Under the pieces are notes generated by a model, which was given only the letters and a program-made list of their open reading frames with translations, searched no databases and was not told the origin of the DNA. From a virus (Duplodnaviria; Caudoviricetes): a DNA stretch of 43,330 nt. Each line of letters starts with the position of its first letter. Within the stretch, counting starts at the first letter, position 1. This document shows positions 658 to 34,102 of the stretch, in pieces. The stretch covers positions 1 to 43,330 of the IMG/VR virus record IMGVR_UViG_3300027754_000178; one strand, 5' to 3'. The position numbers and the translations under genes were made by a program.

Positions 658-2460
658 ATGGCTATTGGAGTATTTGGTCTACAAGTTGCTTATAAACTAA
701 AAAGACTTGAGGTGATGAGTACTACCAATACTCACGGTTGGTTTGTTGGTGTTGATGGTGCTAATGTTTCACTAACTCGTATTGATTTTTCAAATGATTC
801 GACAAAAACATTATTTACAAGTACTGCTCCTTCAAATTTTGGTGCTTCAACAGGAAACTCTAACTATGGTTGGTTTGGTACTACTTTTCCAGCTCAATCA
901 GCAATAAGCCGTTTAGATTTTTCAAATGATTCTTCAGGATATTCTCCAAGAGCAACACTATCCCAAAAAAGAGATGGTGTACGTGCAACAGGAAACTCTA
1001 ACTATGGTTGGTGGGGAGGAGGACAAGTACCTTTCCCATTTCCGGCAGTATTGCATTCTGTAGTAGACCGTATAGATTTCTCTAATGATTCTGGAACAAC
1101 ATCACCAAGAGGTCCATTAAGTTCGGCAAGATATGGTGTAGCAGCAACAGGAAACTCTAATTATGGTTGGTTTGGTGGTGGTGGTCCTCCAGCAGTAGCA
1201 ACAGTAGACCGTATAGATTTCTCTAATGATTTATCAACAGTATCAGTAAGAGGTTCATTAAGTTTAGCAAGACGTAATTTAGCAGCAACAGGAAATTCTA
1301 ATTATGGTTGGTTTGGTGGTGGTACTCCTGGACCATTATCAACAATAGAGCGTATAGATTTCTCCAATGATTTGGCAGCAGCATCAGTCAGAGGTTCATT
1401 GAGTGTATCCGAAATCCAATCAGCAGCAACAGGAAACTCTAATTACGGATGGTTTTTCAGATCAAACATAGATCGTATAGATTTCTCCAATGATACTGGA
1501 GCAGCATCAGTTAGAGTTTCATCCTCATTGCAAGGATCAACAGCAACATCAGGACAAGCAAAAGGACCAGCAATCAAACTGCAAAAAGCAGGGAATTATG
1601 GTTGGTTTGGTGGTGGTCAAACTGCACCATCAACAAGAGTATCAACAGTAGACCGTATAGATTTCTCAAATGATTTGGCAACAATATCACCGAGAGGTTC
1701 ATTAACTTCACCAGGAATAGGTGGTTTGGCAGTAACAGGAAACTCTAACTATGGTTGGTTTGGTGGTGGACAAACTACACCATCAACAAGAGTATCAACA
1801 GTAGACCGTATAGATTTTTCAAATGATTCTTCAAGAGCATCACCAAGAGGTTCATTAAGTATAGAAAGAACTTCATTAGCAGCAACAGGAAACTCTAACT
1901 ATGGTTGGTTTGCTGGTGGTATTCCTGGACCAATACTAGCAGTAGACCGTATAGATTTTTCTAATGATAATGCAGCAATATCACCAAGAGGTCCATTGAG
2001 TGCCGCAAGATATGCTGCTGCAGCAACAGGAAACTCTAACTATGGTTGGTTTGGTGGTGGATTTACATTACCTTTCGCAGCACTAGCAACAGTAGACCGT
2101 ATAGATTTCTCTAATGATTTAGCAGCAATATCACCAAGAGGTTCATTGGGTTCTGCTAATGGTGATTTAGCAGCAACAGGAAACTCCAACTATGGTTGGT
2201 TTGGTGGAGCCAATTCTATGTTTAGGATAAATTTTTTAAATGATTTAGAAAAAACATTAGACAGAGGTAATTTAAGTATTCAAAGATCAACTCTCGCAGC
2301 AACAGGAAACTCCAACTATGGTTGGTTTGGTGGTGGATTTCCGTATGTTGCGGATGTAGAGAGAATAAATTTCTCTAATGATTTGGTATCAGCATCATCC
2401 AGAAGTCCATTAGGATCTCCAAAAGCTCTTCTAAGAGCAACCTCCAACAGCACCAGATAA
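658..2460 (+). CDS. Kelch-like repeat protein 1 (12 repeats, two putative 6-bladed beta-propellers), likely virion/tail-associated
   Basis: 12 copies of ATGNSNYGWFGGG-(variable)-VDRIDFSND-x-RGxLS; linker ATSGQ...QKAG after repeat 6. Confidence 0.75.
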   Translation: MAIGVFGLQVAYKLKRLEVMSTTNTHGWFVGVDGANVSLTRIDFSNDSTKTLFTSTAPSNFGASTGNSNYGWFGTTFPAQSAISRLDFSNDSSGYSPRATLSQKRDGVRATGNSNYGWWGGGQVPFPFPAVLHSVVDRIDFSNDSGTTSPRGPLSSARYGVAATGNSNYGWFGGGGPPAVATVDRIDFSNDLSTVSVRGSLSLARRNLAATGNSNYGWFGGGTPGPLSTIERIDFSNDLAAASVRGSLSVSEIQSAATGNSNYGWFFRSNIDRIDFSNDTGAASVRVSSSLQGSTATSGQAKGPAIKLQKAGNYGWFGGGQTAPSTRVSTVDRIDFSNDLATISPRGSLTSPGIGGLAVTGNSNYGWFGGGQTTPSTRVSTVDRIDFSNDSSRASPRGSLSIERTSLAATGNSNYGWFAGGIPGPILAVDRIDFSNDNAAISPRGPLSAARYAAAATGNSNYGWFGGGFTLPFAALATVDRIDFSNDLAAISPRGSLGSANGDLAATGNSNYGWFGGANSMFRINFLNDLEKTLDRGNLSIQRSTLAATGNSNYGWFGGGFPYVADVERINFSNDLVSASSRSPLGSPKALLRATSNSTR

Positions 2461-2484
2461 ATAACTCAAACTACATTATTACTG

Positions 2485-3093
2485 ATGAAGCAGAACATTA
2501 TTATTGTTGATAATTTCTATGAGAATCCATATGAAGTTCGTCAATATGCACTAAATCTTGAATATCCACAACCAGAAAATCACACATATCCAGGTAGAAA
2601 CTCAAACGGAACTTTTTATACACAAGAGATTCACGATAAGTTTGAGAACCTCATTGGAAGACATTTAGTTCCTGCTGATTGTGGTAATCACGGAGATTTT
2701 AGATTATCATTAGAAGCAGATACATATCAACAAGATATTCATATTGACCCAATCTGGGAATGGGGTTGTGTTCTTTATATGAATCTACCACATCAGGTTA
2801 TTGATGAGGCAGGAACATCTTTTTGGAAACATAAGAAGTTAGGATGGGAAAAATGTCCTGAAAGAGAAGAAGCATCTTGGTTTGGTTATACTTCTTATGA
2901 TGAAATCCGTGATGGTATTATCTACGGTGATGGACTTGACCGTTCCAAGTGGGAGAGATACTGTCTTGCAAATATGAAGTATAATAGAGCAGTCATCTTT
3001 GACCCAAAACTCTGGCATTCGCACGGAGCAAACTTTGGAGATTGTTTAGAAAATGGTAGATTAGTTCAATTGTTCTTTTTTAATAATGCATAA
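2485..3093 (+). CDS. 2OG-Fe(II) oxygenase (DUF6445-like)
   Basis: IIVDNFYENP start, HxD (IHID), distal His (WHSH) and RLVQLFFF end. Confidence 0.75.
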   Translation: MKQNIIIVDNFYENPYEVRQYALNLEYPQPENHTYPGRNSNGTFYTQEIHDKFENLIGRHLVPADCGNHGDFRLSLEADTYQQDIHIDPIWEWGCVLYMNLPHQVIDEAGTSFWKHKKLGWEKCPEREEASWFGYTSYDEIRDGIIYGDGLDRSKWERYCLANMKYNRAVIFDPKLWHSHGANFGDCLENGRLVQLFFFNNA

Positions 3094-3916
3094 GACTTAT
3101 TTTTTTGAAAGTGGATTACCTCGTTCTGGTTCTACATTACTTTCTGCAATTCTAAATCAAAATCCAGACATTCATTGTGGTGCGATTTCTCCTGTGTTGG
3201 AGATTATGTATTATACAGAGCAATACTTTGAAGGTTCAGAGCAGGCACTTGCATATCCAAAACCAGCACAGCATCATAAGATTATTTCAAGTGTGATTGA
3301 TAATTATTATGATGATATTGATAAACCAATTGTAATAGATAAGTGCCGTGCCTGGCCCAATAATGTTGACCGATTACAAGAATACATTACAAAGACTCCA
3401 AAGATTCTGTGTCCTGTAAGAGATGTGATAGAGATTCTTGCATCGTTTATTCAAATGATTCATCGCAATTCTAATCAAGTATCATTCGTAGATAAGGCAC
3501 TCATAGAGAAGGGATATAAACCTACTGATGATAATCGGTGTGATTATCTAATGTGCCCTGAAGGTATTGTAGACCAGTCTCTGTATGCCTTTGGAGAGGG
3601 GTTTAATAAAGGATGTGAGAAGTATATGCATATGATTGAGTATAATGACTTGGTGAATCGTCCAGAAGAGACTATGCGTAAGATTTATCAGTTTTTAGAG
3701 ATTCCTGAATACAAACACGACTTTGGAAATGTGAGTCATAAATACAGAGAGAGAGATGATGAAGTTTACGGATTGAGTGATATGCACGAAGTTCGTAAGC
3801 AGGTGAAAAGAACTTCTAAAAGACCTGAAGAAGTTTTGAGTGATTATGTATTGAATAAGTATTCTGGTATGGAATTTTGGAGAAAGGCAAAACAACCCAT
3901 CAGTCTTTTCATATAA
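3086..3916 (+). CDS. PAPS-dependent sulfotransferase
   Basis: 5'-PSB loop SGLPRSGSTLL, IDKCRAW, PVRD..EILAS, IEYNDLV..PEET. Confidence 0.85.
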   Translation: MHKTYFFESGLPRSGSTLLSAILNQNPDIHCGAISPVLEIMYYTEQYFEGSEQALAYPKPAQHHKIISSVIDNYYDDIDKPIVIDKCRAWPNNVDRLQEYITKTPKILCPVRDVIEILASFIQMIHRNSNQVSFVDKALIEKGYKPTDDNRCDYLMCPEGIVDQSLYAFGEGFNKGCEKYMHMIEYNDLVNRPEETMRKIYQFLEIPEYKHDFGNVSHKYRERDDEVYGLSDMHEVRKQVKRTSKRPEEVLSDYVLNKYSGMEFWRKAKQPISLFI

Positions 3917-3920
3917 GTAA

Positions 3921-5753
3921 ATGACAATCAATAATAACAATATATTTGGAGCATTTACTCTTAATGAAGCAAGAGGGTCAAGACTGACTGGTGATTGGTT
4001 GAATAAAGAATCCGTTGCGAATTATGGTTGGTTTGGTGGGGGTGCTCTGGGAACACCATCAGCAGTAGCAACAGTAGACCGTATAGATTTCTCTAATGAT
4101 TTAGCAACAGCAACAGCAAGAGGACCGTTAAGTTCCGCAAGAGGATATTTAGCAGCAACAGGAAACTCTAACTATGGTTGGTTTGGTGGGGGTGCTAATG
4201 CAACACCAGCAATACAATCAACAGTAGACCGTATAGATTTCTCAAATGATTCCGCAACAGCATCACAAAGAGGTCCATTAAGTTTAGCAAGACAACAATT
4301 AGCAGCAACAGGAAACTCTAATTATGGTTGGTTTGGTGGTGGTGGTACTCCAGGAGCAGTATCAACAGTAGAACGTATAGATTTCTCTAATGATTCTTCC
4401 ACGGCATCACCAAGAGGTCCATTAAGTTTAGGAAGAACTGGTTTATCAGCAACAGGAAACTCCAATTATGGTTGGTTTAGTGCAACAGTAGACCGTATAG
4501 ATTTCTCAAATGATTCTTCCACGGCATCAGTTAGAGGACCATTAAGTTCATCAAAAAATTTATCAGCAGCAACAGGAAACTCTAACTATGGTTGGTTTGG
4601 TGGTGATAGTATTGGTTCAGTAATATTAGACCGTATAGATTTCTCTAATGATACTAGAACAGCAATAGCAAGAGGTCCATTAAGTTCGTCCAGAGATAGA
4701 TTGGCAGCAACAGGAAACTCTAACTTTGGTTGGTTTGGTGGTGGTGCTCCTGGACCATTAGCAACGGTAGAACGTATAGATTTTTCTAATGATACTCCAA
4801 TACTATCACCAAGAGGTGCATTAAGTCAAGCAAGGATAAGATTAGCAGCAACCTCAGGAGTTCTCAATATTCGCAGACAAAAAGCAGGGAATTATGGTTG
4901 GTTTGGTGGGGGGTTTACTACAGTTGCAGTAGCAACATTAGACCGTATAGATTTCTCTAATGATACTGTTACTGGACCATCATTAATAAGAGGTTCATTA
5001 AGTTCGGCAAGAACTGATTTCACAGCAACAGGAAATTCTAATTATGGTTGGTTTGGTGGTGGTGGTCCTGGACCAGTAGCAAGAGTAGACCGTATAGATT
5101 TCTCTAACGATTCAGCAACAGCATCAATAAGAGGTCCATTAAGTGTAGGAAGGGATTCATTAGCAGCAACAGGAAACTCTAATTATGGTTGGTTTGGTGG
5201 TGGATTTCCTGCAGTAGCAACAGTAGACCGTATAGATTTCTCTAATGATTTAGCAACAGCATCACCAAGAGGTTTATTAAGTTCTTCGAGATATAGAGGA
5301 GCAGCAACAGGAAACTCTAACTATGGTTGGTTTGGTGGTGGACAACCTGGACCAGTAGCAACAGTAGACCGTATAGATTTCTCTAATGATACTGTTACTG
5401 GACCATCATTAATAAGAGGTTCATTAAGTTCGGCAAGAAGGCATTTAGCAGCAACAGGAAACTCTAATTATGGTTGGTTTGGTGGTGGATTTCCTGCAGT
5501 AGCAACAGTAGACCGTATAGATTTCTCTAATGATTCCGCAACAGCATTACAAAGAGGTCCATTAAGTTCACCAAGAGGTAGATTGTCAGCAACAGGAAAC
5601 TCTAATTATGGTTGGTTTGGTGGTGGATTTCCTGCAGTAGCAACAGTAGACCGTATAAATTTCTCTAATGATTCCGCAACAGCATCACCAAGAGGTCCAT
5701 TAAGTTCAGCAAGAGGATATTTGGCAGCAACCTCCAACACACCAATAGGATAA
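3921..5753 (+). CDS. Kelch-like repeat protein 2 (12 repeats, 6+6)
   Basis: Same repeat unit; linker ATSGVLNIRRQKAG; C-terminus ATSNTPIG. Confidence 0.75.
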   Translation: MTINNNNIFGAFTLNEARGSRLTGDWLNKESVANYGWFGGGALGTPSAVATVDRIDFSNDLATATARGPLSSARGYLAATGNSNYGWFGGGANATPAIQSTVDRIDFSNDSATASQRGPLSLARQQLAATGNSNYGWFGGGGTPGAVSTVERIDFSNDSSTASPRGPLSLGRTGLSATGNSNYGWFSATVDRIDFSNDSSTASVRGPLSSSKNLSAATGNSNYGWFGGDSIGSVILDRIDFSNDTRTAIARGPLSSSRDRLAATGNSNFGWFGGGAPGPLATVERIDFSNDTPILSPRGALSQARIRLAATSGVLNIRRQKAGNYGWFGGGFTTVAVATLDRIDFSNDTVTGPSLIRGSLSSARTDFTATGNSNYGWFGGGGPGPVARVDRIDFSNDSATASIRGPLSVGRDSLAATGNSNYGWFGGGFPAVATVDRIDFSNDLATASPRGLLSSSRYRGAATGNSNYGWFGGGQPGPVATVDRIDFSNDTVTGPSLIRGSLSSARRHLAATGNSNYGWFGGGFPAVATVDRIDFSNDSATALQRGPLSSPRGRLSATGNSNYGWFGGGFPAVATVDRINFSNDSATASPRGPLSSARGYLAATSNTPIG

Positions 5754-5756
5754 ATT

Positions 5757-7490
5757 ATGAAATCAGGAGCAAGTGAAAGTTCTTATTTTTTTCTTGAAGA
5801 ATATTATAAGTTTCCAGAAAACATTATAGTTTCTCATTTACCACAAGAACTTCAACAATCAAATAAACCAGTCAAAGTATTATGGTCGCAACATTCTTAC
5901 GACCAACCAGTATATCTTAACTTTGATTTTTCAATTTGTGATTTAATTGTCTCTCCATCTAACTGGTGTAGAGAACAGTTTATTAAGTATCATCATATTC
6001 CAGAAGATAAAATCGTCACAATTCCAACAGGAGTATCAAAGCAATTCACATACTCATCAAGAAAATCAAAAACATTCATCTATACTTCTATTCCATATAA
6101 AGGTCTTGAAGTATTAGCACAAATCATTCCTCATATTCCAGAGGCAACCTTTAAGATTTTCTCTGCGATGAATCTTTATGATATAAAAGAAGACCCATAT
6201 ACAGAACTTTATGAGTATCTCAAATCACTTCCAAATGTCATCTACTCACCAGCAGTAGACCAGGCAGAACTGATAGAGCACTTACAAGATGCAGCATTCT
6301 TCATTCATCCTAATATCTGGGAAGAAACATTCTGTGTTTCATTGGCAGAAGCAATGTCTTGTGGATGCTTTCCAATTCTTACAGATATTGGAGCACTCCC
6401 AGAAGTATCAAATGAGATTGCAAATATTGTTCCTATGGAAGGAACAAGAACTTCCACTGGATATCAAGTCACAGATAACTTCCTAAATAACTTTATAGAT
6501 GCCTGTAAATCTGCATTATATTTCTTTGATAATGACAGGCAATACTACGACCAAATTTCACAATCTGTTTCACATTATGCTACTGAAACTTATGATTGGA
6601 AAAAAATTGCAAACGTTTGGAAACAAACATTAGAACCATTTAATAAACAAACTATGACTGAAAATTGTAACCAACTGCAAATTATTTCCCCAGAGGAAGC
6701 AGTAAATAACGAAGAATATCTAAAACAAGCATTTGAAGAAGTGCTTCGTTGGGAAGAAGCAGATAAAGAACTCGCACAAGGAAGAACAAACTTCCAGATT
6801 GAGAAGTTCTTTCTGTTAGAGCAATATACAGTTCCAGCAGCATTTCAGGCAGCAATCAAGAATCGTCGTATTCTTGCCGAAGGTTATATGCAGAAACTGA
6901 TTGAGATGAAAGAGAAGGTTCGTGAGTTTGAGTATCGTTGGAAAGATAAGAATACCGATGAACCTGTAGAGTGGCATACTTCTGGACCGAATGGTGGTTC
7001 AAAAAAACTCTACTGGCACGATTTGGATTCAATCTCAACTCAAAACTATCTAAAGTCTTGTGAGTTGGAGATTCGTGACCGCATTCAACAGATGAATTTC
7101 TTTGATAAGATTATTAATCGTTTGATTGAACTGAATGGTGGTAAGACAGTCACCAGAGAACAGTTTGAGAATGAGGACCACGTTTATTGGGAACGTCGTT
7201 TTGCAGAGCAATCTCTGGATGAAATGGTGAGTTCCAAGACTGGTATTAGTATCGGTAATCTTCACTCAATGAGAAGAGGAACTGCTCCTACATTGGTCAG
7301 TGATGATGCAAACAGAATCAAGAATGGTTATGGTTCACTTGCTGATGCAATTGATAATCCAGAAAGATTTTTGAATACTCTGCAAGAGAAAGTTCTTCGT
7401 GGTATTGAAGAAGTGACGAATACTGATTTAGGTTTGCTTGCACCTGGAGCAGAACAGCATCAACAACTTTTAGAATCCAGAAACTCATAA
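5757..7490 (+). CDS. GT-B (family 4-like) glycosyltransferase fused to a helical C-terminal domain
   Basis: YTSIPYKGL and HPNIWEETFCVSLAEAMSCG (ExxxxxxxE) motifs; about 280 aa charged helical tail from MTENCNQ (6654). Confidence 0.8.
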   Translation: MKSGASESSYFFLEEYYKFPENIIVSHLPQELQQSNKPVKVLWSQHSYDQPVYLNFDFSICDLIVSPSNWCREQFIKYHHIPEDKIVTIPTGVSKQFTYSSRKSKTFIYTSIPYKGLEVLAQIIPHIPEATFKIFSAMNLYDIKEDPYTELYEYLKSLPNVIYSPAVDQAELIEHLQDAAFFIHPNIWEETFCVSLAEAMSCGCFPILTDIGALPEVSNEIANIVPMEGTRTSTGYQVTDNFLNNFIDACKSALYFFDNDRQYYDQISQSVSHYATETYDWKKIANVWKQTLEPFNKQTMTENCNQLQIISPEEAVNNEEYLKQAFEEVLRWEEADKELAQGRTNFQIEKFFLLEQYTVPAAFQAAIKNRRILAEGYMQKLIEMKEKVREFEYRWKDKNTDEPVEWHTSGPNGGSKKLYWHDLDSISTQNYLKSCELEIRDRIQQMNFFDKIINRLIELNGGKTVTREQFENEDHVYWERRFAEQSLDEMVSSKTGISIGNLHSMRRGTAPTLVSDDANRIKNGYGSLADAIDNPERFLNTLQEKVLRGIEEVTNTDLGLLAPGAEQHQQLLESRNS

Positions 7491-7501
7491 GGAGAAAGTA
7501 G

Positions 7502-9766
7502 ATGCCAGCAGGAGATGTATTTGGGCTAGATGGTATTTTTCTTACCAAATCAAATCCTGTTGTTGTTTCTACAATAGGTATCAATTCCACTGCTGCTGGT
7601 GCTGGTATTACTGTTGTGAGTGGAGTTTTAAATACTACTGCTGGTATTGCAACTCTCACTCTTTCAACTGCTGCTGGTCTTTCTACAACACCTTTTTATA
7701 CGGGCACCAAGATCGCAGTTTCTGGTCTTTCCAGTTCTACTGGTGTAGCATTTACTGGATATAATGGAACTTTTGTAGTCACAGGATTTGCAGGAACAAC
7801 AACAGTTTCTTATGCAACTACTGGTTATGTTGGTTCTGTAACTGCTGGTATTACCACAACTGGTAGAGTGATTTTAGTAAGTGATACTCAAGTTACTAAT
7901 ACCATTTGGAGTAGTGCTCAAACTCACGGTTGGTTTGGTGGTGGTGAAAGTCCAGGATTTGGCATCTCAACAGTAGACCGTATAGATTTTTCAAATGATA
8001 CTAGAACTGCAAATATTAGAGGTTTTCTAAGTTCAGGAAGACGACAATTTGCAGCAACAGGAAACTCCAACTATGGTTGGTTTGGTGGTGGTGTAACTTC
8101 CGCGCCTGCAATTACATCAACAGTAGACCGTATAGATTTCACAAATGATTCTTCCACAACATCAATAAGAGGTTCATTAAATTCTGCTAGATATTTTCTT
8201 GCAGCAACAGGAAACTCTAATTATGGTTGGTTTAGTGGTGGTATAAATCCAGCACTTCCAGTATTTTCAACAGTAAACCGTATAAATTTCTCTAATGATT
8301 CTTCTACGGCATCACCAAGAAGTCCATTAAGTTCAGCAAGATATAGTTTAGCAGCAACAGGAAACTCTAATTACGGTTGGTTTGGTGGTGGTGGATCTCC
8401 AGTAGTATCAACAGTAGACCGTATAGATTTCTCTAATGATTCTTCCACGGCATCACCAAGAAGTCCATTAAGTTTAGCAAGACGACATCTTGCAGCAACG
8501 GGAAACTCCAACTTTGGTTGGTTTGGTGGTGGTGGTATTCTTCCAGCAATATCATCAACAGTACAACGTATAGATTTCTCTAATGATTTAGCAACAGCAA
8601 CAGTAAGAGGTCCATTAAGTTTAGCAAGACTTAGACTAGCAGCAACAGGAAATTCCAATTATGGTTGGTTTGGTGGTGGTGCTCCTGCTCCTGGTGTATC
8701 AGCATCAACAGTAGACCGTATAGATTTCTCTAATGATTCTGCAACAGCATCACCAAGAGGTCTATTAAGTTCCGCAAAATATAATTCGGCAGCAACATCA
8801 GGACAAGCAAGGTCTTCAAGTATTCGTCTACAAAAAGCAGGGAATTATGGTTGGTTTGGTGGTGGATCACCTTCACCTTCTCCACCACCATTTCCTTTAT
8901 CAATTACAACAATAGAACGTATAGATTTTTCTAACGACTTATCGGCAATATCACCAAGAGGTGGATTTTTAACAGGAAGACGACAATTTGCAGCAACAGG
9001 AAACTCTAACTTTGGTTGGTTTGGTGGTGGGGTTATAACACTATCAAATTTTCCTCTATTTTCATCAGTAGAACGTATAGATTTTTCTAATGATAATGCA
9101 ACAGCATCAGTAAGAGGTCCATTAAGTTCAGAAAGATGGTTGTTTGCAGCAACAGGAAACTCTAACTATGGTTGGTTTTGTTCTGCTTCTCCACTACCAT
9201 CAGCACCAGTAGACCGTATAGATTTCTCTAATGATTCTGCAAAAGCATTAGTTAGAGGTTCATTAAATATTTCGGCAGTACCAAGTTCAAGCAAAGAAGA
9301 ATTAGCAGCAACAGGAAACTCTAACTATGGTTGGTTTGGTGGAGGTACTAGCCCTAATGGTACTATTGAAACAATCTCAAGAGTAGACCGTATAGATTTC
9401 TCTAATGATTTAGCAACAGCATCACCAAGAGGTCCATTAAGTTTAGCAAGATATAATTTAGCAGCAACAGGAAACTCTAACTATGGTTGGTTTGGTGGTG
9501 GACAACCTGGACCATCAGCAAGAGTAGATCGTATAGATTTCTCTAATGATTCTGCAACAGCATCAATAAGAGGTCCACTAAGTTCACCAACAGATGGATT
9601 AACAGCAACAGGGAACTCTAATTATGGTTGGTTTGGTGGTGGTTTTGCAACAGCAAAAGTAGACCGTATAGATTTCTCTAATGATTCTGCAACAGCATCA
9701 CCAAGAGGTCCATTAAGTGCTGCAAGAGCATATTTAGCAGCAACCTCCAACACACCAGTAGGATAA
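7502..9766 (+). CDS. Kelch-like repeat protein 3 (12 repeats, 6+6) with an extra Thr/Gly-rich N-terminal beta domain
   Basis: Same repeats; N-terminal ATLTLSTAAGL...VSG...YNGTFVVTG segment resembles beta-sandwich modules of phage tail proteins; GGAG RBS. Confidence 0.75.
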   Translation: MPAGDVFGLDGIFLTKSNPVVVSTIGINSTAAGAGITVVSGVLNTTAGIATLTLSTAAGLSTTPFYTGTKIAVSGLSSSTGVAFTGYNGTFVVTGFAGTTTVSYATTGYVGSVTAGITTTGRVILVSDTQVTNTIWSSAQTHGWFGGGESPGFGISTVDRIDFSNDTRTANIRGFLSSGRRQFAATGNSNYGWFGGGVTSAPAITSTVDRIDFTNDSSTTSIRGSLNSARYFLAATGNSNYGWFSGGINPALPVFSTVNRINFSNDSSTASPRSPLSSARYSLAATGNSNYGWFGGGGSPVVSTVDRIDFSNDSSTASPRSPLSLARRHLAATGNSNFGWFGGGGILPAISSTVQRIDFSNDLATATVRGPLSLARLRLAATGNSNYGWFGGGAPAPGVSASTVDRIDFSNDSATASPRGLLSSAKYNSAATSGQARSSSIRLQKAGNYGWFGGGSPSPSPPPFPLSITTIERIDFSNDLSAISPRGGFLTGRRQFAATGNSNFGWFGGGVITLSNFPLFSSVERIDFSNDNATASVRGPLSSERWLFAATGNSNYGWFCSASPLPSAPVDRIDFSNDSAKALVRGSLNISAVPSSSKEELAATGNSNYGWFGGGTSPNGTIETISRVDRIDFSNDLATASPRGPLSLARYNLAATGNSNYGWFGGGQPGPSARVDRIDFSNDSATASIRGPLSSPTDGLTATGNSNYGWFGGGFATAKVDRIDFSNDSATASPRGPLSAARAYLAATSNTPVG

Positions 9767-29426: not shown

Positions 29427-29484
29427 GACCACTTCCCAAACTGGCACAAGACCCCTCCCAAGGGGTCTTTTTTTGTGCTATAAT
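29427..29484 (+). promoter_or_regulatory. Early promoter with an embedded terminator (29450-29474)
   Basis: GACCACT..ACTGGCACA, GACCCCT-CCCA-AGGGGTC-T7, TGCTATAAT. Confidence 0.75.
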
Positions 29485-29508: not shown

Positions 29509-29727
29509 ATGGAAGTTCTTGAAATCACAAACTCTTCTGCTATTTCAAAGATTTCATTCAATGATGAAACCAGTGAAGTGGGTATTGCTTACACTTACAA
29601 ACCCGAAACTTTTTATCTCTTCAAGTGTGATGAGATAGAAGTTGTAAAGGATAAAGTTCAAACTGCTGAGAGTATCGGCAAACTCATTTCACAACTCAAA
29701 AAAGAAGGGACTTTACAATCTGTCTAA
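29509..29727 (+). CDS. KTSC-domain protein
   Basis: NSSAISKISF...V.I.Y...Y.F...AESIGKLI matches the KTSC pattern; start reassigned to 29509. Confidence 0.6.
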   Translation: MEVLEITNSSAISKISFNDETSEVGIAYTYKPETFYLFKCDEIEVVKDKVQTAESIGKLISQLKKEGTLQSV

Positions 29728-29734
29728 CTTCTGT

Positions 29735-29742
29735 TATAAATA
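29735..29742 (+). promoter_or_regulatory. T4-type late promoter of the leader/tRNA transcript
   Basis: TATAAATA 22 nt before the leader ATG; unstructured A/C-rich 5' UTR. Confidence 0.7.
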
Positions 29743-29764
29743 AACACATACACAACAACAAACA

Positions 29765-29869
29765 ATGACCTGCCCCTGTTCACAACTCAAGAGTGATTAT
29801 CGTCCGATGAACCATAAATGGTTTATTGGAGAGACCCTCTTGTTTGTAAATATGGTAAGTCAAAGTTAG
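29765..29869 (+). CDS. putative attenuator leader peptide (34 aa) MTCPCSQLKSDYRPMNHKWFIGETLLFVNMVSQS
   Basis: ATG 29765 to TAG 29867-29869; 3' part overlaps the antiterminator arm. Confidence 0.7.
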   Translation: MTCPCSQLKSDYRPMNHKWFIGETLLFVNMVSQS

Positions 29870-29899
29870 AAGACATAACCATAAAAACAAACAAGAGGG
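29835..29899 (+). promoter_or_regulatory. Antiterminator hairpin
   Basis: CCCTCTTGTTTGT (29835-29847) is the perfect reverse complement of ACAAACAAGAGGG (29887-29899); inner TATGGT/ACCATA and GTC/GAC pairs. Confidence 0.75.
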
Positions 29900-29931
29900 A
29901 TAGAAACCAAAAGTTTCTTCCCTCTTTTTTT
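29893..29931 (+). terminator. Intrinsic terminator (attenuator)
   Basis: AAGAGGGA-T-AGAAAC-CAAAA-GTTTCT-TCCCTCTT then a T run. Confidence 0.85.
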
Positions 29932-30015
29932 ATGCCTTTTATGCCTTGTGCCAGTTGTGCGAGTGTCCCTAATGTTCCCCACAGACCTCAAATCGTGGTA
30001 TTCTAAGGGAGTGGT

Positions 30016-30045
30016 GAGGGAAGCAGTCCTCTTGAACCTTGAAAA
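30016..30045 (+). promoter_or_regulatory. boxB hairpin plus boxA-like antitermination signal
   Basis: GAGGG-AAGCAG-TCCTC hairpin then GAACCTTGAAAA, the boxA form of cyanobacterial rrn spacers. Confidence 0.55.
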
Positions 30046-30059
30046 TTTAAACCTTTTAT

Positions 30060-30134
30060 GGGACATTAACTCAGTCCGGTCAGAGTATCCGACTTTTAAT
30101 CGGTTAGTCCTGGGTTCAAATCCCAGATGTCCCA
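30060..30134 (+). tRNA. trnK: tRNA-Lys(TTT)
   Basis: Cloverleaf: GGGACAT/ATGTCCC, CCGA-CTTTTAA-TCGG, TTCAAAT. Confidence 0.93.
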
Positions 30135-30166
30135 CTTGACCTAGAAAGTCATTAAACTTATCTATT

Positions 30167-30255
30167 GGGAGAAAGGCTACTATTAGATATGTGTGGCGGC
30201 AGTCTGTAAAACTGTTACATAAGAACCGTTGGGGGTGCAATTCCCTCTTCTCCCA
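30167..30255 (+). tRNA. trnY: tRNA-Tyr(GTA), atypical D and T loops
   Basis: GGGAGAA/TTCTCCC, GCAGT-CTGTAAA-ACTGT, long variable arm, T loop TGCAATT. Confidence 0.75.
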
Positions 30256-30259
30256 CCTT

Positions 30260-30331
30260 GACCCTATGATGAAGTGGTTATCATACTTCTCTGTCTAAGA
30301 AGAATCACGAGTTCGAATCTCGTTAGGGTCG
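30260..30331 (+). tRNA. trnD: tRNA-Asp(GTC)
   Basis: GACCCTA/TAGGGTC, CTTCT-CTGTCTA-AGAAG. Confidence 0.92.
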
Positions 30332-30378
30332 TTGCTGATTTGCGCTGGAAAGATAAACCAGAATGCCGTCAGCATTAT

Positions 30379-30450
30379 GCTCCATTCGTCTAGTGGTTAG
30401 GACATCTGGTTTTCATCCAGGCAACAGCAGTTCAATTCTGCTATGGAGTA
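30379..30450 (+). tRNA. trnE: tRNA-Glu(TTC)
   Basis: GCTCCAT/ATGGAGT, TCTGG-TTTTCAT-CCAGG. Confidence 0.92.
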
Positions 30451-30453
30451 TTT

Positions 30454-30526
30454 GGGAACTTAGCTCATCTGGTAGAGCAAAGGTTTGAAGAACCTTGTGT
30501 GGGTGGTTCAAGTCCACCAGTTCCCA
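30454..30526 (+). tRNA. trnF: tRNA-Phe(GAA)
   Basis: GGGAACT/AGTTCCC, AAGGT-TTGAAGA-ACCTT. Confidence 0.92.
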
Positions 30527-30530
30527 CCTT

Positions 30531-30602
30531 AGGAATATAGCTCAATGGTTAGAGCAATCGGTTGATAACCGATAGATTCCAGTTCAAATCTGGGTATTCC
30601 TA
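30531..30602 (+). tRNA. trnI: tRNA-Ile(GAT)
   Basis: AGGAATA/TATTCCT, ATCGG-TTGATAA-CCGAT. Confidence 0.9.
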
Positions 30603-30654
30603 TTGTTGCCTTCGGGCAACATAAAACCCTTATGGGTTGCTTCAAGACAACATT

Positions 30655-30743
30655 GGAAGTGTGGCAGAGAGGCTTATTGCAGAATCCTGCTAAGATTCCG
30701 TATCAAGTAATTGATACCGTTGGTTCAAATCCAACCACTTCCG
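30655..30743 (+). tRNA. trnS: tRNA-Ser(GCT)
   Basis: GGAAGTG/CACTTCC, GAATC-CTGCTAA-GATTC, long variable arm. Confidence 0.92.
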
Positions 30744-30781
30744 TTGTTTCAACTACCGAGTAATCCTCGGTAGTTTAATAT

Positions 30782-30852
30782 GTGTCTGTCGCCAAGTGGT
30801 AAGGCAAGAGTCTGCAAAACTTTTATCGTCAGTTCGATTCTGACTAGACACT
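30782..30852 (+). tRNA. trnC: tRNA-Cys(GCA)
   Basis: GTGTCTG/TAGACAC, AGAGT-CTGCAAA-ACTTT, U73. Confidence 0.92.
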
Positions 30853-30890
30853 TTTAATCCCGTTGATTTCCACGGGATTAAGTTAATCCT

Positions 30891-30946
30891 GCCCGATTGA
30901 TGGAATTGGTATACATACTTGTATTTCGATTCTCTGTGCCCTACCA
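30891..30946 (+). pseudogene. Chimeric tRNA remnant (Leu-type 5' half joined to the 3' end of another tRNA)
   Basis: GCCCGAT-TG-ATG-GAATTGGTATA-CAT-A-CTTGT then TTCGATT-CTCTG-TGCCCTACCA; no anticodon; the ends do not pair. Confidence 0.65.
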
Positions 30947-30967
30947 AGAATTGTAATACTTATTTTC

Positions 30968-30975
30968 TATAAATA
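30968..30975 (+). promoter_or_regulatory. T4-type late promoter of the HNH gene
   Basis: TATAAATA. Confidence 0.65.
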
Positions 30976-31004
30976 TATTATGTATACTAATTTTAGGGAT
31001 TAAT

Positions 31005-31451
31005 ATGAGAAAAGATATTATTGATAGAAGACAAGAAATTTTAAATTGGATTGACGAAAATCAGTCTAAGTCTTTTATGTGTAGAGAGTTGAAATGTAAA
31101 CCTGAAACTTTAGAGAGTTATTTGAAAAAGTTTGGAATTACATATAATGGAAATAAAGGATTAAAGGGCAAAAAAATAAATACAAAATATGTTCAAGCTT
31201 TGGACTATATCAAAGGTTCATTTGTTTCTGCACACAAATTAAAATTAAAAATGATTCGTGATGGTATGAAAGAACATAAATGTGAATTGTGTAATATTAC
31301 TGAATGGATGGGACAAAAGGTTCCAATAGAACTTGACCATATTGACGGTAATCATTACAATAATGAATTAAGCAATCTTAGAATTGTTTGTCCAAATTGT
31401 CACGCACAAACGGACACCAATTCTGGGAAAAATAATAAAAAGCCCCGGTGA
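31005..31451 (+). CDS. HNH (homing) endonuclease
   Basis: CELC...ELDHIDGNHYNNELSNLRIVCPNCH; N-terminal HTH-like segment; stop codon inside tRNA-Leu. Confidence 0.9.
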   Translation: MRKDIIDRRQEILNWIDENQSKSFMCRELKCKPETLESYLKKFGITYNGNKGLKGKKINTKYVQALDYIKGSFVSAHKLKLKMIRDGMKEHKCELCNITEWMGQKVPIELDHIDGNHYNNELSNLRIVCPNCHAQTDTNSGKNNKKPR

Positions 31452-31515
31452 CGTAATTGGTAACCGTGTTTGCCTTAGAAGCAAAATTCTGGGAGTTCGA
31501 GTCTCCCCTGGGGCA
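31442..31515 (+). tRNA. trnL: tRNA-Leu(TAG), short variable loop
   Basis: GCCCCGG/CTGGGGC, TTTGC-CTTAGAA-GCAAA, variable ATTCT. Confidence 0.88.
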
Positions 31516-31536
31516 TTGGATTTTATATCCAAACTT

Positions 31537-31608
31537 GTCGGATTAGTGTAATTGGTAGCACGATGGTCTCCAAAACCATTAGTGAAAGTTCAAATCTTTC
31601 ATCCTTCG
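31537..31608 (+). tRNA. trnW: tRNA-Trp(CCA)
   Basis: ATGGT-CTCCAAA-ACCAT; acceptor GTCGGAT/ATCCTTC has two mismatches. Confidence 0.85.
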
Positions 31609-31612
31609 CCTT

Positions 31613-31686
31613 ACCTTCTTAGCTCAACTGGATAGAGCAAATTCCTACGAAGAATGAGGTTGCAAGTTCGAATCTTGCAGAAGGTG
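31613..31686 (+). tRNA. trnR: tRNA-Arg(ACG)
   Basis: ACCTTCT/AGAAGGT, ATTC-CTACGAA-GAAT. Confidence 0.92.
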
Positions 31687-31723
31687 TTGACTATCTTCTA
31701 TAGATAGTCTATACTTGATACAT

Positions 31724-31814
31724 GGAAGTGTGGTCGAGTCAGGTTTATGGCAGACGCCTTGAAAGCGTCCGAGGTTAATAGCCTCCGTGGGTTCAAATCC
31801 TACCACTTCCGCCA
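31724..31814 (+). tRNA. trnS: tRNA-Ser(TGA)
   Basis: GGAAGTG/CACTTCC, GACGC-CTTGAAA-GCGTC, long arm, encoded CCA. Confidence 0.93.
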
Positions 31815-31886
31815 GGGAGCATAACTCAGTGGCAGAGTATCTGCTTTACACGCAGAGAGTCCTTGGTTCAAATCCAAGTGTTCCCA
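31815..31886 (+). tRNA. trnV: tRNA-Val(TAC)
   Basis: GGGAGCA/TGTTCCC, TCTGC-TTTACAC-GCAGA. Confidence 0.93.
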
Positions 31887-31915
31887 TTAGCAATCATAAG
31901 GTTGCTAAAAAATAA

Positions 31916-31989
31916 CCGGGATTAGCGCAGCTTGGTAGCGCATCTGCTTTGGGAGCAGAGGGTCGCAGGTTCGAATCCTGCATCTCGGA
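31916..31989 (+). tRNA. trnP: tRNA-Pro(TGG)
   Basis: CCGGGAT/ATCTCGG, TCTGC-TTTGGGA-GCAGA. Confidence 0.93.
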
Positions 31990-32031
31990 TTGAAGATAAT
32001 AAATATCTTCAAGTATTAAACTCTATGTTTT

Positions 32032-32187
32032 ATGTCACTTATTTCACAACAAGACCGAGAACTTGCTATTGAAGCATTAGATTTCTACCTTTTCAATAAA
32101 GGTAATGATTTCACTGAAACAAAGAGAGCAGAAGTCAATGCTCTTCTTAATTGGATTAAATTAGAAAAAACTAAAAATGAACATTAA
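32032..32187 (+). CDS. small hypothetical protein (51 aa) inside the tRNA array
   Basis: MSLISQQDRELAIEALDFY...LLNWIKLE. Confidence 0.65.
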   Translation: MSLISQQDRELAIEALDFYLFNKGNDFTETKRAEVNALLNWIKLEKTKNEH

Positions 32188-32344
32188 ACTCTGGTATTGT
32201 GAGTGTATGAAGCAATGGCGTTGGACATTGACTGATGATTCCAATTTAATCATCAAGCAAGAGTCAGGACAACAACCAGATTTGCGTGTTGCTATGAATG
32301 ATGTAGCAACTACTGTAGAGTATATTCTAGAACATAGAGTTTAA
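32177..32344 (+). CDS. small hypothetical protein (55 aa) inside the tRNA array
   Basis: MNIKLWYCECMKQWRWTL...QESGQQPDLRVAMNDVATTVEY. Confidence 0.7.
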   Translation: MNIKLWYCECMKQWRWTLTDDSNLIIKQESGQQPDLRVAMNDVATTVEYILEHRV

Positions 32345-32354
32345 ACTTTTTCAT

Positions 32355-32426
32355 TCCGAGTAGCCCGCAAGGTGCGGGAGCAAACTGTTAATTTGTTATA
32401 GGTCAGTTCGATTCTGACACTCGGAG
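32355..32426 (+). tRNA. trnN: tRNA-Asn(GTT)
   Basis: TCCGAGT/ACTCGGA, GCAAA-CTGTTAA-TTTGT; unusual 5-bp D stem CCCGC/GCGGG. Confidence 0.85.
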
Positions 32427-32450
32427 TTGAAGTCATAAGACTTCATTCAA

Positions 32451-32524
32451 CGCAGACGAGTGTAAAGGTAGCACAATAGGCTCATAACCTATGGGACGGA
32501 GTTCAATTCTTCGGTCTGCCACCA
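32451..32524 (+). tRNA. trnM: tRNA-Met(CAT), initiator-like
   Basis: C1 unpaired with C72, ATAGG-CTCATAA-CCTAT, encoded CCA. Confidence 0.85.
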
Positions 32525-32529
32525 AATAA

Positions 32530-32603
32530 GGGGGATTAGCTCAGTTGGTAGTAGCGCATCCTTTGCAAGGATGAAGTCATCGGTTCGAGTCCGATATCTT
32601 CCA
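32530..32603 (+). tRNA. trnA: tRNA-Ala(TGC)
   Basis: GGGGGAT/ATCTTCC with G3:U70, CATCC-TTTGCAA-GGATG. Confidence 0.92.
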
Positions 32604-32605
32604 TT

Positions 32606-32800
32606 GTCCAAGAGGATAAAAATTCTAATGTTTCGGACGGGGTTTCAATTACCCCCATCTCCATTACTTGGGGATGCTAGGTTTCGACGGGGCATAAAGG
32701 TTTTATCTGTTGACGGGACAAGAAAACAAACGCAAACAACATTGTTGCATTTTCGAGGACTTCTGCACCTTCTTTGGTGTAGAACTCTGACGAATTAAAA
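32606..32800 (+). ncRNA. ssrA: Circularly permuted (two-piece) tmRNA
   Basis: Acceptor piece ends GGAC-GGGGT-TTCAATT-ACCCC-CATCTCC-A (32663); 6-nt spacer; coding piece starts GGGGATG-CTAGGTTTCGAC (32670; G3:U70); tag 32732-32782 ANNIVAFSRTSAPSLV*; outer ends approximate. Confidence 0.9.
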
Positions 32801-32804
32801 ATAC

Positions 32805-32829
32805 AGAGGGTTTTATACCCTCTTTTTTT
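32805..32829 (+). terminator. Intrinsic terminator ending the tRNA/tmRNA array
   Basis: AGAGGG-TTTTATA-CCCTCT-TTTTTT. Confidence 0.8.
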
Positions 32830-32916
32830 GTGCCTTGTGCCACTTGAAGAACTGGTACAAGGACTCTACGAATCTGATTTGAGTGTGCTATGATTACGGA
32901 GTAATAAAAAAATTTT

Positions 32917-33519
32917 ATGCGACCTAATCTTGAAAAAGTTGTAAATCTTTTTCAACCAGATTCTGATGGTTATTCTAATTGGATAACTATTGATGATGTA
33001 ATAAATGCGGGTTTATCTTGGTCAAATAATGGAAATGTTCGCAGAGGTATAGCATTTGGTGTTAATGAATACAATTGGGAATTTAAAAGAATTAATAATC
33101 GTCATAATGGAACTATTTTAGAAATGAGACTTACTGGATATAATAATAGTATTATTTTTAATCAACGTATTCGCAAAGACATTGTTGATGAACTTCGCAA
33201 ACAAACTAAATCCAATTTTTCTTCAGATTGTATTATTCCTCTTGTAGAGAAAGACAAAGAAATAGACCATCGTTGGGGTAGAAAGGATTCTCCTAAATAC
33301 GAATATATTAGTAATATTGTTAAACAATCTATTGATGATTTTCAACTTCTTTCGCATAGTCATAATCAATATAAAAGAGAACAATGTGTAAAATGTAAAG
33401 ATACTAATCTTCGGTATTCTCCACCAAATAATCAATCATTTAAAATTGGATGCAAAGAATGGAATTTTGAGATAGGATGTGAAGGATGTCCACTTGCTCA
33501 ACCAGAACTTTATCGGTAA
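32917..33519 (+). CDS. IceA1/NlaIII-like HNH-type restriction endonuclease
   Basis: QPD..G.S.W, RL.GYN...FNQ.I..DI, EIDH..GRKD, DDFQ.L....N..KR..C.KCK, GC.GC....P..YR, as I recall the H. pylori IceA1/NlaIII family. Confidence 0.75.
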   Translation: MRPNLEKVVNLFQPDSDGYSNWITIDDVINAGLSWSNNGNVRRGIAFGVNEYNWEFKRINNRHNGTILEMRLTGYNNSIIFNQRIRKDIVDELRKQTKSNFSSDCIIPLVEKDKEIDHRWGRKDSPKYEYISNIVKQSIDDFQLLSHSHNQYKREQCVKCKDTNLRYSPPNNQSFKIGCKEWNFEIGCEGCPLAQPELYR

Positions 33520-33523
33520 ATCT

Positions 33524-34102
33524 ATGTATTTAGATAGTGCAAAATTGATGTATTCGTCTGGAAATAATGATGAATGTTATACTCCAAAATATGGTGTAAC
33601 TCCTATTTTGGAGTTTATTCCTGATGATGTAGTTGTCTGGTGTCCTTTCGATACTGAAGAGAGTCAGTTTGTAAAACAAATTTCTAAAAAGAATAAAGTA
33701 GTTTATTCTCACATTAGTTTGGGGCAAGATTTCTTTAATTATGAACCATTTCATTGGGATGTAATTGTATCCAATCCACCATTCACAAATAAACGCAAAT
33801 ATTTTGAAAAAGCATTGTCTTTTAATAAACCATTTGCATTGATTATGACTAACACTTGGTTGAATGATAGTGCCCCAAAACAATTATTTAAAAATAAAGA
33901 TTTGCAGTTATTGATGTTTGATAAGAGAATGAAATTTACAAGTCCAGATGGCAGAGCAAATGATAAAATTACTTTTTCGAGTAGTTATTATTGTTGGAAT
34001 TTTCTTCCAAAACAAATCATAATGAGGCAATTATTAATAGATACTGTGCCACTTACCGAACTGGCACACAACACCTCCAATGCCCTTGCAGACCTGCTAT
34101 AA
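33524..34102 (+). CDS. N6-adenine DNA methyltransferase
   Basis: DECYTP, VWCPFD, QDFF, IVSNPPF; start reassigned to 33524. Confidence 0.8.
   Translation: MYLDSAKLMYSSGNNDECYTPKYGVTPILEFIPDDVVVWCPFDTEESQFVKQISKKNKVVYSHISLGQDFFNYEPFHWDVIVSNPPFTNKRKYFEKALSFNKPFALIMTNTWLNDSAPKQLFKNKDLQLLMFDKRMKFTSPDGRANDKITFSSSYYCWNFLPKQIIMRQLLIDTVPLTELAHNTSNALADLL

Follow-up and report, generated by a model that had tools for sequence, protein, structure and literature searches.

The stretch of DNA analyzed here (hereafter, the window) is a 43-kb piece (43,330 nt) of the genome of a T4-like freshwater cyanophage, and upstream of its tRNA/tmRNA array it carries a conserved short open reading frame (ORF) laid over two mutually exclusive RNA folds, which we consider likely to be a ribosome-controlled attenuator that would raise expression of the array when the array's own amino acids are decoded slowly. 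An attenuator had already been proposed in the first-pass annotation of this DNA, and that reading is supported at the sequence level. The window contains CobS-like and peptidase genes of the cyanomyovirus type, near-identical sequence was found in freshwater runs, and the best cultured-phage match of its tRNA array is Synechococcus phage S-CREM1; its host is probably a picocyanobacterium. The element and its surroundings comprise the following features:

29430..29484, + strand: upstream copy of a repeated promoter-like module, before a 72-aa gene (29509-29727); putative promoter function
29712..29740, + strand: sigma-70-like -35 (29712-29717), 17-nt spacer and extended -10, overlapping the late promoter; putative function
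29735..29742, + strand: T4-type late promoter TATAAATA, by consensus match
29743..29764, + strand: A/C-rich 5' leader before the start codon, mostly unpaired, with small indels tolerated among strains
29765..29869, + strand: leader ORF of 34 codons with 19 kinds of amino acid, from sequence and homologues
29768..29824, + strand: predicted sensing stretch, codons 2-20, from folding with a blocked ribosome footprint
29804..29829, + strand: apical hairpin, the top of a longer protector rod (29761-29868); conserved, candidate pause hairpin
29835..29847, + strand: antiterminator 5' arm within codons 24-28, by exact complementarity
29851..29883, + strand: antiterminator inner helix (29851-29856 with 29878-29883), pairing kept in homologues
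29887..29899, + strand: antiterminator 3' arm, by exact complementarity; its last 7 nt are the terminator 5' arm
29893..29931, + strand: intrinsic terminator hairpin and U-tract, by folding
29948..30004, + strand: second promoter-like module (two boxes and extended -10) past the terminator, one of a module family in the window
30016..30045, + strand: short hairpin and a 12-mer that is conserved among relatives
30060..32603, + strand: tRNA array of 17 genes, the first being tRNA-Lys(TTT), by ARAGORN and Rfam
30968..31451, + strand: late promoter and HNH endonuclease gene inserted within the array, by consensus and annotation
32574..32873, + strand: permuted cyanobacterial-type tmRNA, by ARAGORN and Rfam, followed by a terminator at 32805-32830

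All letter-level claims of the first-pass annotation hold: the late promoter TATAAATA is present at 29735-29742, positions 29743-29764 are A/C-rich and mostly unpaired in folding, the 34-codon ORF encodes 18 kinds of amino acid in its first 23 codons and 19 overall (only Ala is absent), repeated residues mostly use different codons, and 29835-29847 is the exact reverse complement of 29887-29899 over 13 bp. The 3' segment of this pairing had also been described as the 5' arm of the terminator; the two folds are indeed exclusive, but only 7 of the 13 nt (29893-29899) lie in the terminator stem, an overlap that suffices for mutual exclusion. Downstream, the 17 tRNAs plus tmRNA originally counted are recovered as 15 tRNAs and the permuted tmRNA called by ARAGORN between 30060 and 32873, plus two Rfam matches, one at 32451-32521 and one weak and tRNA-like at 30167-30254, the site of tRNA-Tyr in relatives. 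New with respect to that annotation are the 5' rod (29761-29868), which is able to hide the antiterminator arm, the sigma-70-like -35/-10, the second module at 29948-30004, and the late promoter at 30968. The terminator itself is absent from a simple terminator scan because its stem is bulged. The hairpin and 12-mer at 30016-30045 resemble the boxB/boxA of rRNA operons, a label that our literature search did not confirm. The late promoter follows the cyanomyovirus consensus given in the available portion of PMC2984593. Across 33 distinct upstream regions of the family, 16 have only the sigma-70-like type of promoter, 10 have both types, six have only the late type and one has neither, and, as no terminator was found between the 72-aa gene and the leader, transcripts of that gene may enter the leader as well.

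For the amino acid diversity of the window peptide, the chance is ~0.02 for at least 19 kinds in 34 random codons and ~0.001 for at least 18 kinds in 23 (the 23-codon cut having been picked post hoc), and 19 kinds are reached by 40 of 5004 real phage protein windows. The leader region folds far better than its shuffled counterparts (z = -7.25, 0/200). Searches of Rfam, Pfam, PHROGs and the ESM Atlas returned no family for the element or its region, blanks that imply neither novelty nor absence, and no Rfam family scored over its cut-off at the element. A CRISPR-repeat mimic RNA was considered and rejected, as CRISPR-DR7 matched at 16.1 bits against a cut-off of 37 (E = 5.5), over a stretch that varies among homologues. 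Contigs from RNA runs cover the element, whole or mostly, in three of four runs, and in run X15 a contig spanning 29698-29981 at depth 334 is followed by one spanning 29952-30050 at depth 44; such contigs show neither ends, strand nor level, and may derive from DNA, and hence are not counted as evidence here.

We folded the element with and without a blocked ribosome footprint, assumed to extend 10 nt beyond the A-site codon. Without a ribosome, the full-length RNA of the window is predicted to form the 5' rod and terminator (-58.7 kcal/mol, compared to -52.1 kcal/mol with the antiterminator forced), a transcript ending before 29920 forms the antiterminator with a probability of 0.999, and the antiterminator beats the terminator when the 5' part is removed. 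With the ribosome included, its position decides in silico which fold forms: in all 10 elements examined in detail, an A site at or before codon 19-22 leaves the terminator 5' arm captured in the nascent RNA, and an A site beyond this point frees it. Codons 19-24 contain the predicted switch in 42 of 47 rows, a tally in which S-CRM01 was taken in the wrong frame (one row of the 47, and the sole source of its two ATA codons). The proposal that stalling at almost any early codon would be sensed is therefore predicted to hold for codons up to about 20, but not for Gly22, Glu23 and Val, which lie past the predicted switch point. In the window, the full-length equilibrium also switches with ribosome position; in S-PM2, S-CREM1, B3 and L055, the full-length RNA favors the terminator at every ribosome position, such that the switch would have to be kinetic. 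The nascent equilibrium without a ribosome favors the antiterminator in 38 of 47 rows, and in the window the rod is predicted to form first, with a refolding barrier of 13.9 kcal/mol compared to 3.0 kcal/mol with a ribosome at codon 10. Read-through upon start-codon knockout, as had been predicted earlier, is doubtful for the window element in these models.

Taking these predictions into account, we propose that a ribosome advancing past codon 20-21 would cover the antiterminator 5' arm, allowing the terminator to form and transcription to stop, and that a ribosome delayed at codons 2-20 would leave this arm free, in which case the antiterminator could capture the terminator 5' arm before the hairpin is completed and the polymerase would read on. 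The delay may arise from uncharged, scarce or cleaved tRNA, and a list in which amino acids occur in single copy would let one leader report on the whole array. In the window phage, the switch would act on top of a basal supply from the second promoter; in some relatives it would be the sole visible entry. We note that single codons would be expected to signal more weakly than the codon runs of trp/his leaders, which counts against this proposal.

The sequence comparison started from the ends of DNA contigs showing diverged copies with start codon and frame kept, and search patterns built from these copies recovered 45 true homologues among 83 loci. A pattern of the two arms and terminator alone, blind to the peptide, found 12 further loci among 69, and a second peptide-region pattern gave 12 loci, all on contigs already found. 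Exact patterns taken from the window returned only the window phage or chance matches, and neither the element nor the peptide had a BLAST match among cultured phages, the S-PM2 and S-CRM01 leaders matching only themselves. Several homologue loci are copies of the window phage itself and hence not independent. Loss of the ORF and of the alternative pairing in relatives had been named at the outset as grounds for abandoning the attenuator; both are conserved, even across poorly aligning peptides. The same ATG is used in all homologues and both internal indels are of 3 nt, and 13 of 36 codon changes are synonymous compared to 19% expected (P = 0.013, 23 distinct ORFs), bearing in mind that these are related sequences and that codon choice is also constrained by the hairpin. 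Three main peptide types were found, one of 34 aa lacking only Ala, one of 32 aa lacking only Cys, and one of 33 aa with all 20 amino acids, the last of which came from the peptide-blind structure pattern; the positions of His and Arg differ between types. A single homologue copy (L120) has a frameshift, located after the antiterminator arm. Retention of start, frame and length suggests that the ORF is under selection for translation. A tRNA-Lys gene lies within 620 nt downstream in 50 of the 51 loci with enough sequence, and the genes upstream vary.

At the RNA level, 95.5% of cells of the 13-pair antiterminator are paired across 34 distinct elements, with two doubly changed pairs (slid controls: 27-50%), and the apical hairpin is paired in 98% of cells, with a G-U to C-G change in 6 of the 34 rows and similar hairpins in S-PM2 and S-CREM1. 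The inner helix occurs in a G-C form in 15 of these elements, an A-U form in 15 and a G-U form in three, and is unmatched in one. Of five covariation measures, three exceeded every one of 500 shuffles; the other two failed to do so (96 and 281 of 500). Conservation of the protector rod across clusters was not supported, with only 18 of 36 elements exceeding their codon-shuffled controls. Our first reading, a stand-alone small RNA with an incidental ORF, drew on the second module, on relatives without the element and on locus L004, and was overturned by these homologues.

We also surveyed the family without regard to the leader, using only the conserved 12-mer and tRNA-Lys as the pattern, which yielded at least 119 viral loci, 86 of them with a tRNA-Lys call. 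Among the listed loci, 33 of 119 are without this call and 11 of the 86 were excluded as too short upstream, leaving 75 testable loci. The detector was blind to peptide sequence, scoring a terminator, an 18-45-codon ORF ending upstream of it, and a duplex between ORF and terminator arm. A search upstream of tRNA arrays in relatives had been suggested as a check on the attenuator reading, and it returned diverse short ORFs with alternative helices: leader, antiterminator and terminator occur together at 68 of the 75 testable loci among the matches listed, and of the seven misses, two are clear leaders by hand and five are without a leader. Counted by distinct terminator among these matches, the arrangement occurs at 48 of 52 array-proximal terminators compared to 5 of 49 elsewhere in the same DNA, with duplex energies of -14 to -28 kcal/mol and -11 to -13 kcal/mol, respectively. 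The 45 distinct peptides among the matches listed average 17.9 kinds of amino acid, compared to 15.1 in matched phage-protein windows; at least 18 kinds are found in 31 of them (69%, 6% expected), and Cys, Trp, His and internal Met are present in 89-93% (36-44% expected). Clustering at 60% identity reduces these peptides to 11 groups, so the 45 cannot be treated as independent samples. At L243 and L256, array and module are present and the leader is absent, which suggests that the leader is dispensable in some lineages.

Cultured phages carry the element as well. Directly before a tRNA-Lys-led array, and with promoter, alternative helix and terminator present, we found a 32-codon ORF in S-CREM1 (SCREM1_59, 17 kinds of amino acid), a 30-codon ORF in B3 (gp50, 14 kinds), and an unannotated 34-codon ORF in S-PM2 (15 kinds), located at ~108824-108928 of record LN828717.1. 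In S-CRM01, an unannotated 26-codon ORF with 18 kinds lies two genes before tRNA-Lys, and its 20-pair helix has the opposite purine/pyrimidine polarity, the G-rich arm being the coding arm. The diversity of the S-PM2, B3 and S-CREM1 peptides is unexceptional on its own, which counts against the attenuator reading. Six relatives that share the preceding 72-aa gene have that gene followed by tRNAs, without the leader element. A candidate longer leader is gp18 of S-CBWM1 (46-57 aa; L331 10804-11035), before the first tRNA of the array of a non-T4-like cyanophage, for which a duplex of -17 kcal/mol is predicted with the terminator arm and the stop codon lies 52 nt from the U-tract. The detector found no leader in the S-SKS1 region, at L002-L007, or at terminators near the Anabaena trn operon.

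Amino acid content was then compared with tRNA content for the 31 elements whose array spans 2 kb or more, with arrays cut at 2.5 kb and Tyr excluded from the permutation test because ARAGORN misses or miscalls it. Whether an amino acid occurs in the sensing stretch matches whether the array has its tRNA in 444 of 589 cells, a value that none of 5000 permutations reached (global mean 379, within-cluster mean 422), and with one member per cluster (11 clusters) P is at most 0.003. Pro is sensed in 19 of 19 elements with an array Pro tRNA, compared to 1 of 12 elements without. The S-PM2 leader includes 11 of the 12 amino acids that its array serves; Phe is missing from this leader, as is a Phe tRNA from the array, and at L239 and L253, where the arrays are reduced to 7-8 tRNAs without His and Trp, the leaders are likewise without His and Trp. 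Leaders of smaller arrays have 14-17 kinds, matching their own array. His, Gln and Thr fall within the sensing stretch of the window leader, yet the window array has no tRNA for them; in L109 an identical leader is accompanied by all three tRNAs, suggesting their recent loss from the window phage. The match is imperfect, in that Glu is in most arrays yet lies past the predicted sensing stretch in 22 of 27 cases, Gly and Val are also usually past the switch point, and the S-CREM1 leader has neither His nor Gln though its array has both. For Arg, 37 of the 42 codons in the sensing stretch are CGT/CGC, compared to 32% in phage genes, which fits the Arg-ACG of the arrays, although this excess is confounded by the hairpin and by common descent. 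The pan-amino-acid sensor originally proposed is therefore apt for near-complete arrays, but the better general rule is that a leader lists its own array, and not all amino acids. On balance, we lean toward the view that, in T4-like cyanophages with large tRNA arrays, the leader is an audit of the host tRNA pool that co-evolves with tRNA gain and loss, and that would release the array if starvation, scarcity or cleavage by host defense were to affect any tRNA on its list.

This correspondence bears on whether the attenuator would instead sense a general slowing of translation or nascent-peptide arrest (under antibiotics or stress) and not specific tRNAs, the leader composition then reflecting an arrest motif and the hairpin. 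The largest peptide clusters do share a D-C/Y-R..W..H-I-like core, which also encodes the apical hairpin, antibiotic-responsive leader attenuators such as tlrB and vmlR are described in the available text of PMC12288461, and an Anabaena tRNA array responds to translation inhibitors according to the accessible part of PMC8421152. We nevertheless regard this alternative as unlikely, as the architecture is kept in leaders without the core (B3, S-CRM01, L255, L263 and L217), and amino acid gain and loss follow tRNA gene gain and loss even within clusters. The two readings overlap, since a codon list would report general slowing too.

The first-pass annotation further held that the terminator gates the array. 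An exclusive terminator is conserved, but the second promoter-like module at 29948-30004 would offer the polymerase another entry, so that in the window phage the switch probably adds to a basal supply. The window has 40 extended -10-like sites, 21 of which have a box 34-36 nt upstream (34 nt in the 29948-30004 copy). Between 12350 and 43060, the two-box and extended -10 module occurs 21 times with fixed spacing, always on the + strand, and some copies have a terminator hairpin between box and -10. At L004, a terminator, the same module and tRNA-Lys follow an ordinary gene, without a leader. An extended -10 lies between U-tract and 12-mer in 34 of the 45 distinct leaders among the matches listed, the window included, with variant modules recognized by eye in five more; six distinct leaders among these matches have only 33-42 nt to the box before tRNA-Lys, without a promoter module. 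At L089, L091, L103, L104 and L119, and likewise in many relatives, the promoter-like module is tandemly duplicated before tRNA-Lys, and at L299, 300 nt upstream of tRNA-Lys, a window-type downstream module stands with a different terminator-ended element in the leader's place. We suggest that most of these phages would have two inputs to the array, one basal or early and one conditional, and that six would have a single gated input.

The second module past the terminator, together with arrays that have no leader, would also suit a small protein gene with a function of its own and an ordinary terminator, with the second promoter driving the array and the alternative helix being incidental. The ORF is annotated simply as a hypothetical protein in S-CREM1 and B3, and short Cys/His-rich peptides could bind metal. 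Against this, the strong coding-terminator helix is concentrated at array-proximal terminators in the counts given above (48/52 compared to 5/49 among the matches listed), its arms show compensatory changes and, in S-CRM01, opposite polarity, tRNA arrays are the sole setting in which the gene is found, most codon changes (23 of 36) are nonsynonymous, and six leaders among the matches listed have no second promoter, all of which make this explanation quite improbable. Finally, an RNA switch or small RNA under protein, antisense RNA or ligand control, with the ORF as a by-product, would be in keeping with the very stable fold (z = -7.25), with two conformations near in energy, and with the invariance of the element in close strains whose preceding gene carries many changes, but is very improbable given that unrelated sequences retain the start codon, the reading frame, the ORF length and the site of the stop, that synonymous changes are in excess and composition follows the array, that no Rfam family scores over its cut-off, and that little primary sequence is common across clusters for a factor to bind.

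The ribosome-controlled attenuator that we favor resembles hisL, trpL and pheL in having a short leader ORF with the antiterminator arm inside it, an exclusive terminator, and ribosome position as the input. Multivalent attenuator leaders are known in thrL and ilvL. As in trp/his-type systems, the short ORF lies between a promoter (by consensus) and the genes, the exclusive folds are conserved by pairing, and the control codons are cognate to what the array supplies, imperfectly so for Glu, Gly, Val and S-CREM1. In contrast to amino acid operon attenuators, the target is phage tRNA/tmRNA genes and not biosynthetic enzymes, the leader lists ~10-18 amino acids mostly once, and there is often a second promoter past the terminator; as they have no codon runs dedicated to a single amino acid or a small set of them, the cyanophage leaders would be a variant, not a plain member, of the trp/his type. 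T-box riboswitches exert terminator/antiterminator control by tRNA charging, and bind one tRNA directly and independently of translation. The cyanophage element would share control by charging state but differ in needing translation, and no Rfam T-box match was found at the element.

In hisL, the sensing of charged tRNA-His is described in the accessible portion of PMC12360218. In Bacillus tlrB and vmlR, stalling on a short leader relieves termination and polymerase pausing buys time, but the input is a drug-bound ribosome, the output is a resistance gene, and there is no match of codons to tRNA genes (PMC12288461, in the text available). The trn operon of Anabaena PCC 7120 is likewise a long tRNA array in a cyanobacterium, which stays off as long as translation is unimpaired, but it is controlled at initiation by the protein repressor TrcR (PMC8421152 and PMC10272220, from the parts accessible); the terms "attenuat", "leader" and "terminator" are absent from the main text of PMC8421152. 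The PeSL cassettes of the T4-type phages RB49 and phi1 are repeated early promoter modules with adjacent hairpins, comparable to the 21-copy module, and bear only on the second promoter; the portion of PMC2839356 available describes no leader ORF or alternative helix, and the paper mentions neither cyanophages nor tRNA. "Attenuat", "leader", "terminator" and "promoter" are absent from the main text of the S-CREM1 paper, and no leader-peptide attenuator for tRNA genes or a phage array was found in the literature searched. The mechanism class is known; we found no account in that literature of such a target, of the list-the-array logic, or of a phage setting.

Why phages carry tRNAs is debated, and it has been argued that these tRNAs compensate for codon usage, replace host tRNA that has been degraded, or evade defenses that cut tRNA (PMC9964418 and PMC11726456, in the sections available). 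If the attenuator reading is correct, the leader would be a read-out of which shortage the phage was selected to meet, and a reporter would test these hypotheses directly; phage tRNA supply would be an inducible countermeasure, and tRNA genes, a phage and a cyanobacterial host would all be added to the settings of leader-peptide attenuation. The model phage S-PM2 and S-CRM01 both contain the element without annotation.

We also made several observations that are separate from the switch. At ~2430-2600 of L151, L180 and L191, AT-rich viral contigs unlike the window family, a 26-codon leader with 13 kinds of amino acid, an alternative helix and a terminator lies ~600 nt before a small tRNA cluster. 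In the window, three large phrog_19111 proteins made of ~47-residue repeats are encoded at 658-9766, and directly past the array, at 32917-34102, an IceA-family gene (PF05315) overlaps a DNA methyltransferase gene, resembling a restriction-modification pair. Before the HNH gene, 30891-30945 is a short remnant like two tRNA gene ends fused, at the position of which the sister strain L109 has Gln and Leu tRNAs in an array without a gap. tRNA-Thr genes with an AGT anticodon occur in many arrays (L109, L125 and other family arrays), and codon 2 of the family leaders is ACT or ACC. Most tmRNA tags end in Ala-Ala. The tag of the window tmRNA (ARAGORN, 32574-32873) ends in Ser-Leu-Val, which may alter the fate of tagged proteins.
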